Assembly: GCA_963737065.1 (NCBI GenBank)
Contig: CAVTRC010000001.1
Span: 2,400,001 to 2,464,000 of the forward strand
Source: Candidatus Eremiobacteria bacterium
GTDB lineage: Bacteria > Vulcanimicrobiota > Vulcanimicrobiia > Vulcanimicrobiales > Vulcanimicrobiaceae
Direction of reading: 5' to 3'
Length of the DNA stretch: 64,000 nt
Position 1 is the stretch's first letter; each line of letters begins with the position of its first letter. Positions 4,672-46,461 of this stretch are shown piece by piece. The position numbers and the translations under genes were made by a program. Under the pieces are notes generated by a model. That model worked only from the letters and a program-made list of their open reading frames with translations, searched no databases and had not been told where the DNA came from.

Positions 4672-5700
4672 ATGAACTTGCCCATCGTACCGCCCTACGA
4701 GCCGATGGAGATGACGCAAGTCGAGCGCATCCCTGACGGACCGCAGTGGGAGTACGAACCGAAATGGGACGGATTTCGAGCACTCGTTTTTCGCGACGAT
4801 CACAACGTCGAGGTTCAATCAAAGTCGGGACAGCCGCTCGCACGATACTTTCCGGAGATCGTCGAGCGGGTCCGCGCGCTTGCGGCACGCCGGTTTGTGC
4901 TCGACGGTGAATTGATGGTGCAGATCGGTGACGAGCTTTCGTTCGACGCGCTCTTGCAACGCATTCATCCGGCCGAGACGCGCATTGCCCGGCTTGCGAA
5001 GGAAACGCCTGCGCGTCTCGTCGTCTTCGATATTCTCGTCGATGCGGACGGCAACGATCTCACGGGGCAAACGCTCGACGTACGTCGCGAAACGCTCGAA
5101 GCGTTTGCGAAGCGATATTTCAAAGCCGACGATCCCGCATTGTCGCCCGCGACGTACGATCGCGCGGTGGTTGACGCGTGGTTTGCGCATGTCGGAAACG
5201 CGCTCGACGGTGTCGTCGCAAAGCGTCGCGATCTCCCGTACGCCGGCGGCACGCGCGGCGCGGCGGTGAAGATTAAGAACCTGCGCAGCGCGGATTGCGT
5301 CGTCGGCGGCTATCGATTGAACAAGGACAAGAGCGGCGTTGGGTCGCTTTTACTCGGGCTCTACGACAACGAAGGCAAGCTGAATCACGTCGGCTTCACC
5401 TCCGGTTTTAAGACGCGCGAACGCAGCCCGCTACTCAAGCAGCTGCGTGAATTGGAAAAACCGCCCGGCTTTACCGGCAGCGCCCCCGGGGGACCGAGCC
5501 GTTGGCGACAAACCGAAGAACCATGGTTTCCGCTCGATCCCAAGCTCGTAGTGGAAGTGCAGTACGATCACATCACCGGCAATCGCTTCCGTCACGGAAC
5601 CAAGCTCTTGCGTTTTCGTCCCGACAAGGCGCCGCGTCAGTGCACGATGGACCAGCTACGTATCGACGAAGCCGCATCACCTCTGCAATTCCTCAGGTAA
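4672..5700 (+). CDS. ligC: ATP-dependent DNA ligase (LigC type)
   Basis: EPKWDGFR adenylation motif, LDGEL, DGVVAK, DCVVGG, RFRHG..RFRPDK.P.QC. Confidence 0.93.
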   Translation: MNLPIVPPYEPMEMTQVERIPDGPQWEYEPKWDGFRALVFRDDHNVEVQSKSGQPLARYFPEIVERVRALAARRFVLDGELMVQIGDELSFDALLQRIHPAETRIARLAKETPARLVVFDILVDADGNDLTGQTLDVRRETLEAFAKRYFKADDPALSPATYDRAVVDAWFAHVGNALDGVVAKRRDLPYAGGTRGAAVKIKNLRSADCVVGGYRLNKDKSGVGSLLLGLYDNEGKLNHVGFTSGFKTRERSPLLKQLRELEKPPGFTGSAPGGPSRWRQTEEPWFPLDPKLVVEVQYDHITGNRFRHGTKLLRFRPDKAPRQCTMDQLRIDEAASPLQFLR

Positions 5701-7654: not shown

Positions 7655-7723
7655 ACACGGGCTCCTGCGAAGTGCTTTTGAAAAAGAGGGGTCGACAAAT
7701 CGCGACGCAATTTGGGGAACTGC

Positions 7724-9094
7724 ATGCGGTTATGGCGCGACCCGCGGGACCGGCGCTATGGTGAGCGGCTTGCGGGAAGTTATCTCGCGTCGCTGCTGTT
7801 GCACGCACTCTTCGCATTGCTCGTGTTCAGCGTCGTCGCAAATACGTCTGAAGAAGGCGCGAGCGAAAGCCGCATCGGCGGTTCGATCGTGACCGTCGAA
7901 CAACGTGCGCCGGTCGTCGCGCAAGCGCCGGTGAAAACGCAAGCCGCACCGCTTCCGCATGCGCCGCGCATTGCGCCCGTCCAACATGCGCATGCTGCGC
8001 AACCGGCACATCAACCGCAACCACCCGCGCATCACGAACTTGCGAAATTTGCGCCGACCGCTCCGCCGAATCCGACGCCGTTGCCGCAAGCGACGACGCA
8101 ACCGAACGTCCAGCCGACGCAAGCCGTCTTCGAACCGCAGCCGCAGAACGAATTGCCCGCAGTGCCGAGCTCCGCTCCGACCGCTGCCGCCGTTGCGGTT
8201 AGCGTCACGATCCCGCCGACGGCGGCGCCGATGCCCGTTCCGACCGCGGTTGCCACGGTAAGGCCGTCGACGCGCCCGGTCGCGACCGCCGCGCCGACCA
8301 CAAAGCCGCAGACTCCGGCTCCCGCTACTCCGAGTCCCGTCCCGTCAGCGGTCGCCGTCGCGCCGAAAGCATCCGCTGCGCCGACGCTATCGCCGATCCC
8401 CGCACCGAGCGTCAGCACCGCGCCGGCCGCGAGGCCGGGCGTGCCGAGTCCGAGCCCGACGCGAGCGGCGGCGGCCGCGCAAACGAAGGGAACAGCTCCC
8501 TCACCAGGGCCGAAGGGGCTCGTCTCGCCCGGTCCGCGGGCGGGCAGCGCCGGAGCACCGAAGGCTGCGCCCGAGCGTCCCGTCGCCGTGAGCCCAACCG
8601 CGACGCCGGTTCCGTCTGCGCGCCGCAACGGACCGAAGCCCACGGGAGCACCGAACGACATCAACTCGAAGTTGCGCGCGATGCTGCCGCACGGTCCGGT
8701 TAATCCAACCGAAGGTTCGTACCATCCGTCGATTACGCTAAACGGAACGATGGAACCGACACCGCCGCCGGACGTGGTTGCGACGACGAAGTTCATTTAC
8801 GAAACGCCGAACGGCGACGAGCGCATCAAAATGTGGGTTACGAACGTTCGGCACGTCGGCATGATCACGATGTGCGAGGGATGGATGTTGCGCTATCCCG
8901 CTGCGGGCGGCGTCGGCGCGCAACGACAAATCGGGACGGCAACCAATCCGATTTCCGGCGGCATTCAAGTCTCGACTACGGTCGGTGCAAAGCACGTCGG
9001 CACCTTAGCGCCGATTGTCGAAGCGAATGCATCTGCGGTATGTAGCGAACGAAATTTGGTGCCCTACGCTCCCTCGGCCGTGCCGTCGCCGTAA
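7724..9094 (+). CDS. Membrane-anchored Pro/Ala-rich protein, TonB/TolA-like architecture
   Basis: N-terminal TM helix with SxxxH (SLLLH), a long Pro/Ala-rich linker and a globular C-terminal domain. Confidence 0.6.
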   Translation: MRLWRDPRDRRYGERLAGSYLASLLLHALFALLVFSVVANTSEEGASESRIGGSIVTVEQRAPVVAQAPVKTQAAPLPHAPRIAPVQHAHAAQPAHQPQPPAHHELAKFAPTAPPNPTPLPQATTQPNVQPTQAVFEPQPQNELPAVPSSAPTAAAVAVSVTIPPTAAPMPVPTAVATVRPSTRPVATAAPTTKPQTPAPATPSPVPSAVAVAPKASAAPTLSPIPAPSVSTAPAARPGVPSPSPTRAAAAAQTKGTAPSPGPKGLVSPGPRAGSAGAPKAAPERPVAVSPTATPVPSARRNGPKPTGAPNDINSKLRAMLPHGPVNPTEGSYHPSITLNGTMEPTPPPDVVATTKFIYETPNGDERIKMWVTNVRHVGMITMCEGWMLRYPAAGGVGAQRQIGTATNPISGGIQVSTTVGAKHVGTLAPIVEANASAVCSERNLVPYAPSAVPSP

Positions 9095-9110
9095 TTACTC
9101 AGACTCCCAC

Positions 9111-9139
9111 TTGAACTGTGACTTTTCGCTGATTAAAAT
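9111..9139 (+). promoter_or_regulatory. Sigma70-type promoter
   Basis: TTGAAC (9111-9116), 17-bp spacer, TAAAAT (9134-9139), in an AT-rich patch. Confidence 0.7.
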
Positions 9140-9145
9140 TAAGGT

Positions 9146-9447
9146 GTACCTACATAGAAGGTATCAAGACGGATACGCGGATCGGAGCGCAGCGAAGCTG
9201 CTAAAGACCGCAAGAGATTCGCGAAACGCGGATCGGGCGTGTGGATTCCTTGGTACGGAATCCGAAGAGGAGGTGCGGTTGGAACCGCAAGATCCACCGG
9301 GCTATTTAGCCGGCGAAGCACGCGCGATGATGGGTGGTCTTGTTCACCCGAACGGAGCCGGACGTAACCGGTAGCGCGTTAGTTCGCAAAACCGTAAACA
9401 AAAGGCGAGGGGCCGTAATCCACGCAGGATTGCGGCCCGTCGCTTTT
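9146..9447 (+). ncRNA. Candidate structured non-coding RNA (~300 nt, family unassigned)
   Basis: Lies between a promoter and a strong terminator, has at least 8 short hairpins plus long-range helices, and contains no convincing ORF. Confidence 0.55.
9400..9447 (+). terminator. Intrinsic terminator (potentially bidirectional)
   Basis: AAAAGGCGA-G-GGGCCGTAATCC-ACGCA-GGATTGCGGCCC-G-TCGCTTTT. Confidence 0.75.
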
Positions 9448-9553
9448 CTGGCGATTGAACCCCCCAACGTCCTGTTGCTAAACGAGGGGCCGCTTTGCGG
9501 TGGGGTTGCGGCCCGTCGGCGTTTCCGGTATTCTTAGCGATGGTCGATCGTAC

Positions 9554-9574
9554 AGCGTGGGCATGTCCCGCGCT
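9554..9574 (+). promoter_or_regulatory. rimP leader hairpin
   Basis: AGCGTGGG-CATGT-CCCGCGCT followed by a T-rich tract just upstream of rimP. Resembles the conserved GTGGG..CCCAC hairpin of rimP-nusA operon leaders. Confidence 0.6.
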
Positions 9575-9600
9575 TCGTTGTTGTAAAAGGGGGCAGTCGC

Positions 9601-10113
9601 GTGTCTGCGTTCACGGACAAGTTCGAGCAAACGTTGGACGCGATCGCTCACGACGGGCAGTTTCCCGGGGTCGAGGTCGTCGCGCATTCGGCGCATGTCC
9701 GCCGCGGCATGACGACGCTCAGCGTCACGATCGACAAAGAGGGCGGCGTCGATCTAGCGACGTGCGAGCGAATTGCATCGCGAATCAACGACGCGCTCGA
9801 TGAATTCGAGGATCCGTACTCGCTCGAGGTCGAGTCGGCCGGCCTCGAACGCCCGCTCGTGCGTCCGCACGATTACGAGCGCTTCGCGGGGAAACGCGCG
9901 CGTATCGTAACGTCTTTAACGATCAACGGCGGCAAAACACATCGCGGTACGCTCGTCGGGCTGCGAGGCGAAACCGTGATTCTCGCAACGGAACATGGCG
10001 AACTGCCGCTTCCGATAGCGACGATCAAATCGGCAAACTTGGAATACGATCCGCGCGCGGATCTTACTCGCGACAAACGTGAACGGAAGACACATGGCAG
10101 AACCGGTAGCTGA
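9601..10113 (+). CDS. rimP: Ribosome maturation factor RimP
   Basis: IDKEGGV..C..I, YSLEVESAGLERPL; precedes nusA. Confidence 0.95.
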   Translation: MSAFTDKFEQTLDAIAHDGQFPGVEVVAHSAHVRRGMTTLSVTIDKEGGVDLATCERIASRINDALDEFEDPYSLEVESAGLERPLVRPHDYERFAGKRARIVTSLTINGGKTHRGTLVGLRGETVILATEHGELPLPIATIKSANLEYDPRADLTRDKRERKTHGRTGS

Positions 10114-16485: not shown

Positions 16486-17390
16486 GTGATCGGCTTCATC
16501 AACGTTTTCAAGCCGGCCGGTCCAACGTCCGCACAGATCGTTGCACGCGTGCGACGCATCTACGGCGTGTATGCTCGCGATCGCCGCATCGCGGTGGGCC
16601 ACCTCGGCACGCTGGATCCGCAAGCGGCGGGCGTTCTTCCGATCGCCGTTGGAAAGGCGACGCGCCTCATACCGCTGCTGACCGATCAGCGTAAACAGTA
16701 TGCAGCAACGCTCGTGCTGGGCCGTTCGACCACCACGCAAGACGCGCTCGGCGAAACCGTTGCTTCTGCAGAAGTGCCCGATGAGTGGCGTGCGCGCCTA
16801 GAAGCCGTGCTTCCGCGCTTCGCCGGTAAGATTGCGCAAACGCCGCCGATGTTTTCCGCGGTTCACCATAACGGAAAGCGTTTGTACGAACTCGCTCGCG
16901 AAGGAAAAACCGATCGAACGAAAGTCACGTACGGTGATCGTGTACGGGATCTCGCTGCTCGGAATTGAGCTGCAATCGACTGGCTCGGGCCGAAGCTATT
17001 GCGCGCATCCGTATTGCGTGCGGCGAAGGGACGTACGTGCGCACCCTGTGCGAAGACATCGGCGCGGCAATCGGTGTCCCATCGCACATGGGCGCGCTGG
17101 TCCGCGAGGGCTCCGGCCCGTTCATACTGTACGAAGCGCGCACGCTCGATGAAGTGGCGAACGATCCCCAAGGTGCGATGATTGCACCCGAACATATCAT
17201 CCCGTTTCCAACGATCGTCCTCGATCTGCGCAGCTCCGCCGATTTCCGTGCCGGACGCATCGTCGCGCTTCCCCACGGCGCGCCCGCGCAACAAGTTTTC
17301 GTACGCGATCATTCGCGGACGCTCGTCGGGGTGGGGGAGGCTCACGGCGCGATGCTCGCGCCGCGCAAGGTATTTGTATCCAGTGATTAA
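16486..17390 (+). CDS. truB: tRNA pseudouridine(55) synthase TruB, broken by two single-base frameshifts (~16905-16909 and ~16987-16989)
   Basis: VGHLGTLDPQAAGVL and PPMFSAV in frame 1, EGKPIERKSRTV in frame 2, CGEGTYVRTL in frame 3. Confidence 0.9.
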
Positions 17391-19482: not shown

Positions 19483-20655
19483 TGCAATAGTCAGGATATG
19501 ATCGGACAGTTGGTGAATCTCACCGGGTCCACCTTCTGGGGAAACGATCATGAGCAACCAAGAGAAGAAAATCATCAAAGGTAAGGTTGGCCTTCTGAAC
19601 CTCGCCAAGCAATTGGGTAACGTTAGCGAGGCCTGCAAGGTCATGGGGTACAGCCGCGATACGTTCTATCGTATTCGCGATATGTACGAGACTGGCGGCG
19701 AGACGGCGCTGGTCGAAATCAGCCGACGAAAGCCGAACCTAAAGAACCGTATTGCAGCGGAGGTGGAAGAGGCAATCGTTACGCTTGCGATCGAGCAGCC
19801 GGCGTACGGGCAGGTCCGCGTTGCGAACGAATTGCGTAAGCGCGGCATGACGGTTTCGCCCGCCGGCGTTCGCTGCATCTGGCAACGGCACGATCTTGAA
19901 ACGACAAAAAAGCGGCTGAAGGCGCTGGAAGCCAAGAGCGCCCAAGAAGGGCTCGTGTTGACCGAATCGCAGCTCGCGGCGCTTGAAAAGGCGCAGCTCG
20001 ACAAAGAAGCGCACGGGGAATTCGAAAGTGAGTGCCCCGGATATTGCGGTGCGCAAGATACGTTTTACGTCGGCACGCTTAAAGGCGTGGGACGCGTCTA
20101 CCAGCAGACGTTCCTGGATACCTATACGAAGGTCGCGTTCGCCAAGCTCTATAGCGATAAGACGCCGGTTACGGCTGCCGATCTTCTCAACGATCGCGTG
20201 CTGCCGTTCTTTGAAGAGTACGACTTGCGCCTCGTCCGCGTGCTTACCGATCGCGGAACGGAGTTCAATGGCGACCCGCAAAAGCATCCGTACCAACTCT
20301 ATCTGGCAATCGAAGACATCGATCATACACGCACGAAGGTGAAGAGCCCACAGACCAACGGCATCGTCGAACGCTTCCACAAGACGATTCTCAACGAATT
20401 CTACCGTATTGCTTTCCGCAAGAAGATCTACGAAAGCATCGAAGCCTTGCAGGCCGACCTCGACGCCTGGGTTCGGAGTTATAACACCGAGCGACCACAC
20501 CAAGGACGCTGGTGCTACGGAAAGACACCGATGCAAACGTTCATTGACAGCATCGAACTCGCGAAAGAAAAGCTTATCGCATAATCAGGCAGCTACGATA
20601 TCACTGACAACCCGGTAAGATTCGTCGGCTGTCCGATCATATACTGGCTTGTACA
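19483..20655 (+). mobile_element. IS481-family insertion sequence
   Basis: Imperfect terminal inverted repeats: TGCAATAGTCAGGATATGATCGGACAG on the left versus the reverse complement of the right end, TGTACAAGCCAGTATATGATCGGACAG. They enclose an intact transposase. Confidence 0.9.
19550..20584 (+). CDS. IS481-family transposase
   Basis: [25 protein letters not shown] core QDTFYVG / TDRGTEF / [17 protein letters not shown]. Confidence 0.95.

Positions 20656-46386: not shown

Positions 46387-46461
<75 letters not shown>

Follow-up and report, generated by a model that had tools for sequence, protein, structure and literature searches.

The region upstream of rimP

The stretch of DNA considered here, and called the window throughout, comprises 64,000 nt of contig CAVTRC010000001.1 (positions 2,400,001 to 2,464,000, forward strand) of assembly GCA_963737065.1, assigned to Candidatus Eremiobacteria. 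It contains the rimP-nusA-ylxR-infB operon, recognized by Pfam matches, with rimP (9601..10113, plus strand) as the first gene. On the same strand and 5' of rimP lies a compact unit comprising a promoter (P1, 9111..9139), a Shine–Dalgarno-like sequence with a short upstream open reading frame (uORF, 9279..9374), a three-way RNA junction (9313..9387) and a terminator-like hairpin (T1, 9401..9447). The first-pass annotation of this DNA had proposed at this place a discrete structured RNA, transcribed from a promoter of its own and ended by a hairpin terminator, and comparison with relatives bears this out. It had also called the RNA non-coding, while stating beforehand that a conserved translated frame here would count against the call; a conserved short frame preceded by a Shine–Dalgarno sequence is present, and the description as a pure non-coding RNA has to be given up. 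Tentatively, we read the unit as a translation-sensing module in the leader of the operon.

Occurrence in related genomes

A NusA-based search, with one genome taken per species, gave 80 loci for comparison (given L numbers where they must be told apart). Nearly all are titled Eremiobacterota or Vulcanimicrobiota (WPS-2), a few bear other phylum names, and all the genomes compared are metagenome-assembled genomes from uncultured organisms. In every one of the 80 loci rimP lies directly 5' of nusA. Iterated nhmmer searches located the element in the window and in 53 of the 80 loci. A covariance model, R1, seeded from 17 sequences of one clade, recovered exactly one copy in the window and in each of 52 loci, with scores of 43.7–155.6 bits, and each of these 53 copies is on the rimP strand immediately 5' of rimP. 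Searching 1.2 Mb with R1 gave no further copy better than E = 0.06. One carrier, L046, is truncated at a contig end, and L013 offers just 110 nt of upstream sequence. The conserved portion spans only ~9263–9450, about 185 nt, so that the conserved RNA of ~300 nt originally proposed must be shortened.

A NusA identity of 75% or more marks the carriers, which are titled, among others, Aquilonibacter, Cybelea, Tyrphobacter and Baltobacteraceae. The 26 loci that do not have the element are titled, for example, Elarobacter, Velthaea, Lustribacter and Zemynaea. The upstream gene stops a few tens of bases short of the rimP promoter in 25 of these 26 (L061 falls outside that check), and no related reading frame was found in any of the 26.

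No known RNA family accounts for the element. At the gathering score the only Rfam match in the whole window is a tRNA at 46388–46461, and at E ≤ 10 no family matches 9000–9650, as the first-pass annotation had expected; in two relatives (L034, 9050–9520; L079, 9300–9560) Rfam returned only noise far below threshold. Its remark that tRNA and tmRNA hallmarks are lacking also agrees with ARAGORN, which found 0 tRNA or tmRNA genes in 8900–9700. In the open-access literature text searched, there was no description of an element joining a uORF to such a junction, nor one pairing infB with a leader peptide. It is plausible that the uORF-plus-junction module constitutes an undescribed class.

Promoter P1 and the 5' extension

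The promoter TTGAAC-17-TAAAAT, correctly picked out at the outset, was recovered by a consensus scan with its −35 at 9111–9116 and its −10 at 9134–9139. A promoter of the form TTGnnn-17/18-TAnnnT is found 23–141 nt 5' of the GGAGG that precedes the uORF in 49 of 52 sequences. The 17-nt spacer (9117–9133) is itself conserved across the carriers among L001–L070. It is palindromic in several clades, with the form CGAC-N4-GTCG in, for example, L016, L034 and L041, and resembles GCGACTTTTATCGG in the clade of the window. It could serve as an operator for a DNA-binding regulator.

Between promoter P1 and the conserved portion, the fold of the window has a 5' extension of ~120 nt with four hairpins (9146..9263, plus strand). 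Only the closest relative, L045, has anything resembling it, and it is otherwise lineage-specific; most relatives have 23–53 nt with one hairpin in its place. The region 9140–9450 as a whole (311 nt) folds on the plus strand at −135.8 kcal/mol (z = −5.68), a value equalled by 0 of 100 shuffles. The minus strand folds equally well (z = −5.77), and folding energy therefore cannot choose the strand, which is taken as plus from the promoter, the T-tract and the abundance of G-U pairs. The internal repeats first noticed in this region do exist, as a 14-nt pair at 9172/9223 and ACCGCAAGA at 9207/9284.

Fold of the conserved core

The conserved core, all of it on the plus strand, begins with a helix that involves the Shine–Dalgarno-like sequence itself. 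In helix P1a (9269–9271/9293–9295) the GGA of GGAGG pairs with UCC, and the three pairs G-C, G-C and A-U are near-invariant. Hairpin P1 (9275–9279/9284–9288) follows, with the TTG start codon at the edge of its loop; 98.4% of its cells in the alignment are paired, and four of its five pairs have changed on both sides. Hairpin P2 (9300..9311; arms 9300–9302/9309–9311) is 93% paired, with changes on both sides at two of four pairs. The three-way junction comes next, defined by covariation and by model R1. It is closed by stem P3a (9313–9316/9384–9387), continues through stem P3b (9321–9325/9374–9378) and carries the arms P4 (9332–9337/9344–9349) and P5 (9357–9361/9368–9372).

The first-pass annotation had listed eight hairpins. 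All can be read in the sequence and most occur in the fold of 9140–9450, but conservation and covariation are confined to those at 9275–9288, 9300–9311, 9332–9349 and 9357–9372. The long-range closing helices it had suggested are not the conserved ones, which are P3a and P3b.

The model-fitted alignment of the core (53 sequences, 50 of them distinct) has 94.1% of its cells paired, and 21 of the 33 pairs have changed on both sides. It scores 0.216 for covariation; shuffles score 0.114 (0 of 500 as high as the alignment), and slid partners 0.02–0.04. Single-sequence folds of the 50 distinct sequences, left unconstrained, recover on average 75% of the 33 consensus pairs (median 82%). RNAalifold run on a raw alignment made with MAFFT recovers the structure only in part, because of indels in the loops.

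A short reading frame within the core

The GGAGG at 9269..9273 lies 4–10 nt before a start codon in all 53 sequences. That codon is TTG in 52 of them and ATA in the remaining one (L032). The frame that follows has 31 codons in the window, beginning M-E-P-Q-D-P-P-G, and ranges from 11 to 42 residues among the relatives. Its N-terminal consensus is M-[E/S/T/D/A]-[P/L/S]-[Q/L/E]-[D/N/S]-P-P-G. The Pro-Pro-Gly is kept in 53 of 53 sequences, and the codon variation beneath it is entirely third-position and synonymous: the first proline is CCA in 26, CCG in 23 and CCC in 3, the second is CCG in 52, and the glycine is GGC in 45 and GGT in 7. In L044 the codons are CCA CCA GGA, so that Pro-Pro-Gly is retained there while helix P2 is changed. 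Among residues 2–7, Asp, Glu and Pro together number five in 18 sequences, four in 34 and three in 1. Pro-Pro-Gly is a strong stall motif whose translation depends on EF-P.

The start and the end of the frame are also kept. Changes in the length of the hairpin P1 loop, judged by eye, all fall 5' of the TTG. The GGA of that loop has been lost in the group formed by L046–L048, L050 and L051, in L011 and in L032, and all three lineages retain the in-frame start. The stop codon lies within the P3b/P4 junction in 44 of 53 sequences. When stop triplets in this junction were counted in any frame among the 50 distinct sequences, 41 of 44 proved to share the frame of the TTG, from which they lie 48, 51 or 54 nt away (9, 26 and 6 sequences, respectively), and the frame from TTG to stop is held although single-base indels intervene.

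Synonymous Pro-Pro-Gly codons, the placement of indels, the kept start and the in-frame stop favour a real coding constraint on the uORF. Beyond residue 9 the peptide is poorly conserved, and selection at the protein level looks to be limited to the N-terminal octapeptide and the position of the stop. Residue 3 varies among Pro, Leu and Ser alongside compensating changes in hairpin P1, and constraints on the RNA and on the coding sequence therefore overlap. We infer that the uORF is translated and that ribosomes stall on it. One longer candidate was rejected: a frame of 119 codons (9015–9374) that shares the frame and stop of the uORF has no Pfam match, spans promoter P1 and has an upstream part that is not kept in relatives.

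Terminators and the promoter of the operon

The strong terminator claimed for the 3' end of the unit is present. T1 (9401..9447, plus strand) has a core stem of 12 pairs at 9410–9438 (GGGGCC...GGCCC), followed by GTCGCTTTTC with a T-run at 9444–9447. Its conservation was scored on a structure-independent MAFFT alignment of 49 of 54 sequences, two identical, one truncated and two 3'-divergent sequences having been excluded. On this alignment 94.9% of cells are paired and 8 of 12 pairs have changed on both sides; the covariation score, 0.271, exceeds the 0.169 of shuffles, of which 0 of 500 scored as high.

The 3' arm of T1 has a second role, since it contains the −35 of P2, the promoter that belongs to the operon itself. 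The TTGCGG of this arm is followed at 16–18 nt by TAnnnT in 48 of 54 sequences, and in 44 of those 48 the spacer between T1 and the −10 contains a T-run of at least three. The arrangement in the window is different. T1 is duplicated there ~77 nt further 3', as hairpin 9483–9518 within 9483..9534 (plus strand; repeat families D1 and D3), a duplication that the first-pass annotation did not mention. The first copy retains the TTTT run, and the second provides the −35 TTGCGG (9506–9511) and bears the −10 TATTCT (9529–9534). The terminator and promoter roles are therefore split in the window, unlike their fusion in the 48 of 54 relatives. A −10 at the usual spacing after T1 is also absent in L018, L024, L030, L032, L037 and L044.

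A further hairpin, T2 (9554..9585, hairpin 9554–9574, plus strand), was found by a scan and consists of a AGCGTGGGC...CCCGCGCT stem followed by TTCGTTGTTGT. It begins about 12–24 nt after the −10 of promoter P2 and ends 16 nt before the rimP start at 9601, compared with 154 nt for T1. The strict pattern GCG[TC]GGG-N3-9-CCC[GA]CGC with a TTC..TGTTGT tail occurs in 73 of 81 sequences; seven of the eight exceptions have, by eye, a variant GC hairpin with a T-rich tail, and L061 has none. T2 is conserved as AGCGTGGGC-N-CCCGCGCT followed by TTCGTTGTTGTA across all sampled Eremiobacterota families, as is promoter P2, whose form TTGCG(A/G)-17-TAnnnT is also found in families that do not have the element. 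The operon thus has its own phylum-wide promoter (P2) and attenuator (T2), and the unit is a clade-specific addition built onto the −35 of P2. In E. coli the corresponding layout is metY-terminators-rimP-nusA-infB.

Two variants of the rimP-proximal region were seen among the loci. In L064, L068 and L074–L080, which belong to element-free families, the −10 of the rimP promoter, TATGAT, lies ~40 nt before T2 inside an inverted repeat, CCGCCGTCG...GGCGGACGG. In L003, L005, L045, L065, L018, L024, L030, L072 and L077 an extra ~100 nt with GC-rich hairpins is found between T2 and rimP.

A search of the plus strand of 9100–9600 for BoxA (GYTCTTTAANA, at most two mismatches) gave only 9128–9138, within promoter P1 and upstream of the transcript, the consensus used being gammaproteobacterial and possibly different in this phylum.

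Comparison with known leaders

In its proposed working the unit comes nearest to a leader peptide that aborts its own translation. MgtL of E. coli (MEPDPT...) carries EPDP directly after the initiator Met, which destabilizes the ribosome and aborts translation, more so at low Mg2+; whether mgtL is read through determines how the mgtA leader folds and sets a Rho-dependent terminator (bioRxiv 10.1101/2021.02.02.429294 and PMC11282234). The uORF resembles MgtL in being very short and in having Asp, Glu and Pro right after the Met (MEPDPT compared with MEPQDPPG in the window). It differs in the addition of an invariant Pro-Pro-Gly and in the genes downstream, which are rimP, nusA, ylxR and infB rather than an Mg2+ transporter, and the RNA is related to that of mgtL neither by sequence nor through Rfam.

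The rimP-leader provides a second comparison. In Naville & Gautheret (2010, PMC2965389) it is described as a GGGc...gCCC hairpin followed by a T-stretch, with no visible antiterminator and with NusA proposed as the regulator. It is ranked there as the most widespread predicted attenuator, its control is described as still unsettled, and some Gammaproteobacteria have tandem terminators upstream. T2, situated in the 5' region of rimP-nusA-infB, fits the GGGc...gCCC hairpin and T-stretch, and T1 resembles the description. However, no Rfam model matches T1 or T2 at E ≤ 10, and the leader as published lacks any larger conserved element, whereas here a uORF, a junction and a separate promoter precede T1, which in turn overlaps a promoter. 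By analogy, we propose that the unit is closest in its working to an MgtL-type leader combined with a terminator of the rimP-leader type, while belonging to neither by sequence or model.

The classical leader-peptide attenuators of the his, trp and phe operons (for the his leader, PMC8129111) likewise combine a short leader frame, helices melted by the ribosome and a hairpin with a T-run, the frame in the present case being a predicted one. Here, however, the key codons are unrelated to the product of the operon, and the unit falls outside this class because the alternative between terminator and antiterminator that defines it was sought and not found. Consecutive prolines have been shown by Elgamal et al. 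(2016, PMC5021804) to tie transcription–translation coupling and premature termination to the speed of ribosome passage in an EF-P-dependent manner; engineered and genomic coding genes were used there, whereas a dedicated, conserved leader is found here. Direct coupling of ribosome and polymerase at T1 is unlikely, since the uORF ends about 30–110 nt before it.

Neighbouring genes

The region is bordered 5' by an open reading frame (ORF) of 460 residues (7712–9094, plus strand) with no Pfam or NCBIfam match. Its middle is very GC-rich (up to 0.785 around 8400–8600), and its C-terminal region is kept beside rimP in many loci across the sampled families. Further 5', a gene with a LigD primase-polymerase domain (1922–2833) and a gene for an ATP-dependent DNA ligase (4672–5700), both on the plus strand, lie close together in what looks like an end-joining repair cluster. 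A TruB-like ORF of 160 residues (16486–16968, plus strand) covers positions 8–114 of the 149 in the profile of the TruB N-terminal domain; its shortness may reflect the choice of start codon, a frameshift or a truncated gene. A few kilobases 3' of the operon, an ORF of 344 residues (19550–20584, plus strand) with helix-turn-helix and integrase-core (rve) domains is probably an insertion sequence transposase.

A proposed translation-sensing leader and its alternatives

The account that we favour, though only tentatively, is that one clade of Eremiobacterota has added to its rimP-nusA-infB leader an upstream module, specific to this lineage, that senses translation in the manner of MgtL. Promoter P1 would give rise to an RNA of ~230–300 nt containing the Shine–Dalgarno sequence, the short frame and the junction, and ending at T1. 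The uORF runs across the 5' sides of P2 and P3 and reaches its stop codon inside the junction. Full translation excludes the folded junction, because a ribosome cannot arrive at the stop without melting P2 and the 5' sides of P3a and P3b, and this opposition of translation and junction is conserved in both the position of the stop and its frame. Ribosomes that stall or drop off at the start, rich in Asp, Glu and Pro and containing Pro-Pro-Gly, would leave the junction folded; those that read to the stop would melt it. The fold of the junction would then report the quality of elongation, as determined by Mg2+, by help from EF-P or ABCF proteins and by the supply of Pro-tRNA, and would set how much transcription from promoter P1 passes T1 and T2 into rimP-nusA-infB. 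A protein factor, with NusA the prime candidate, would probably act at the G-rich and C-rich hairpins. Alternatively, the unit may act by occluding promoter P2.

Several observations weigh against this account. The link from the fold of the junction to read-through is only inferred, because no antiterminator was found. Equilibrium folds were computed for three ribosome positions, masking the Pro-Pro-Gly site, the stop or the whole frame, and in none of the 52 sequences did T1 fall below a mean pair probability of 0.57. When transcripts were cut before the 3' arm of T1 (n = 51), there was no consistent sequestering of its 5' arm by upstream sequence, the mean upstream pairing of that arm being 0.53 in free transcripts, 0.33 with a stalled ribosome and 0.41 with one that had read to the stop. 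T1, as a strong hairpin with a T-run, may simply terminate, and the unit could be a separate gene, since promoter P2 lies 3' of T1. The uORF of the window is atypical: it is unusually long, since 44 of the 53 frames have 16–18 codons compared with its 31, and its stop lies in P5. Further exceptions are two sequences whose frame ends at codon 11 and the one with ATA as its start. Finally, the evidence for the fold depends on the alignment. Because a model-fitted alignment leans towards the structure, the core was also scored on a structure-independent MAFFT alignment of 38 of 49 sequences, 11 rows with large insertions or near-duplicates having been excluded beforehand. The signal there is weak: 81.1% of cells are paired compared with 78.9% in shuffles, the covariation score is 0.115 against 0.097 (1 of 500 shuffles), and 8 pairs have changed on both sides against 5.2 (38 of 500). 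One-column offsets are visible in this alignment. The conservation and covariation that the first-pass annotation had named as a check are found as regards presence in 53 of 80 loci and are strong on the model-fitted alignment, but on the structure-independent alignment of the core they are weak.

NusA-dependent terminators are known in Bacillus, and YlxR binds RNA. The operon itself encodes these two RNA-binding proteins, of which NusA contains S1 and KH domains. One alternative is that the unit is a protein-binding autoregulatory leader in which NusA, YlxR, RimP or IF2 binds the junction, the G-rich and C-rich hairpins or both, and so sets termination at T1 and T2, the uORF being part of the platform or incidental. 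The sequence of the stems is conserved beyond the needs of pairing, being invariant in P1a and near-invariant over the GCCGGAC of P5, and the failure to find an antiterminator is the same argument by which NusA was proposed for the rimP-leader (PMC2965389). Such a leader leaves unexplained the purely synonymous variation of the Pro-Pro-Gly codons, the in-frame stop in the junction (41 of 44) and the invariant GGAGG followed by TTG, and we consider it unlikely.

A stand-alone RNA running from promoter P1 to T1 and acting elsewhere in trans, whether as a small RNA, a sponge or a dual-function RNA, is quite unlikely. Such an RNA would be expected to have what the unit has, namely a near-consensus promoter of its own, a covarying hairpin with a T-run, a stable structure and an adjacent operon with a separate promoter. 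But its position beside rimP, which would then be a matter of history, and its orientation are the same in 53 of 53 cases, T1 is fused to promoter P2 in 48 of 54, and the signs of coding speak against a pure non-coding RNA. The specific suggestion of a sponge like CsrB or RsmZ was rejected. These sponges carry many GGA motifs, mostly in hairpin loops and above chance. The unit shares with them a series of hairpins, a promoter and a terminator of its own, and a single GGA placed in a hairpin loop. The count of about ten GGA triplets given with the suggestion is itself sound, there being 11 in 9140–9447. Compared with the window as a whole this number is high (the mean per 308 nt is 4.4, and 0.4% of stretches of that size reach 11), but shuffles that preserve the base composition of the region average 8.5 ± 2.4 and 20% of them reach 11, so that there is no enrichment. 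Only three GGA sites are conserved, in the GGAGG, in the first hairpin loop and in CCGGAC; the one in the loop has been lost in three lineages, and the relatives have no repeated GGA-hairpin modules. With sites that are too few and unenriched over composition, a CsrA sponge is unsupported.

That the 11–42-residue peptide is itself the product of a small-protein gene, with the junction and T1 as a stabilizing 3' untranslated region, would suit the Shine–Dalgarno sequence, the start codon, the purifying selection on D/N-P-P-G and the conserved stop position, but is improbable, as just the first eight residues are conserved and the tail is free in sequence and length, the 31-residue peptide of the window has no NCBIfam match at E ≤ 10, and the overlapping helices covary at the cost of amino acids, residue 3 being Pro, Leu or Ser.

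Implications

The rimP-nusA-infB operon is among the most widely conserved in bacteria, and in this uncultured soil and peat lineage it has acquired a second elaborate layer consisting of a promoter, a uORF, a junction and a terminator fused to a promoter. The locus also holds a caution for genome scans, in that an intergenic region dense in hairpins and to all appearance RNA-like can conceal a conserved coding signal of eight residues.

The translation-sensing reading can be taken one step further, to a gauge of ribosome performance through which transcription of rimP-nusA-infB would respond to the state of the ribosome (Mg2+, EF-P or ABCF help, Pro-tRNA). This extension is doubtful. If true, it would carry sensing of the MgtL type beyond ion transport into the core machinery of translation, would provide a compact system of about 190 nt that lends itself to testing, and would amount to a feedback from the integrity of ribosomes to their biogenesis, of a kind that we have not seen described for rimP-nusA-infB.

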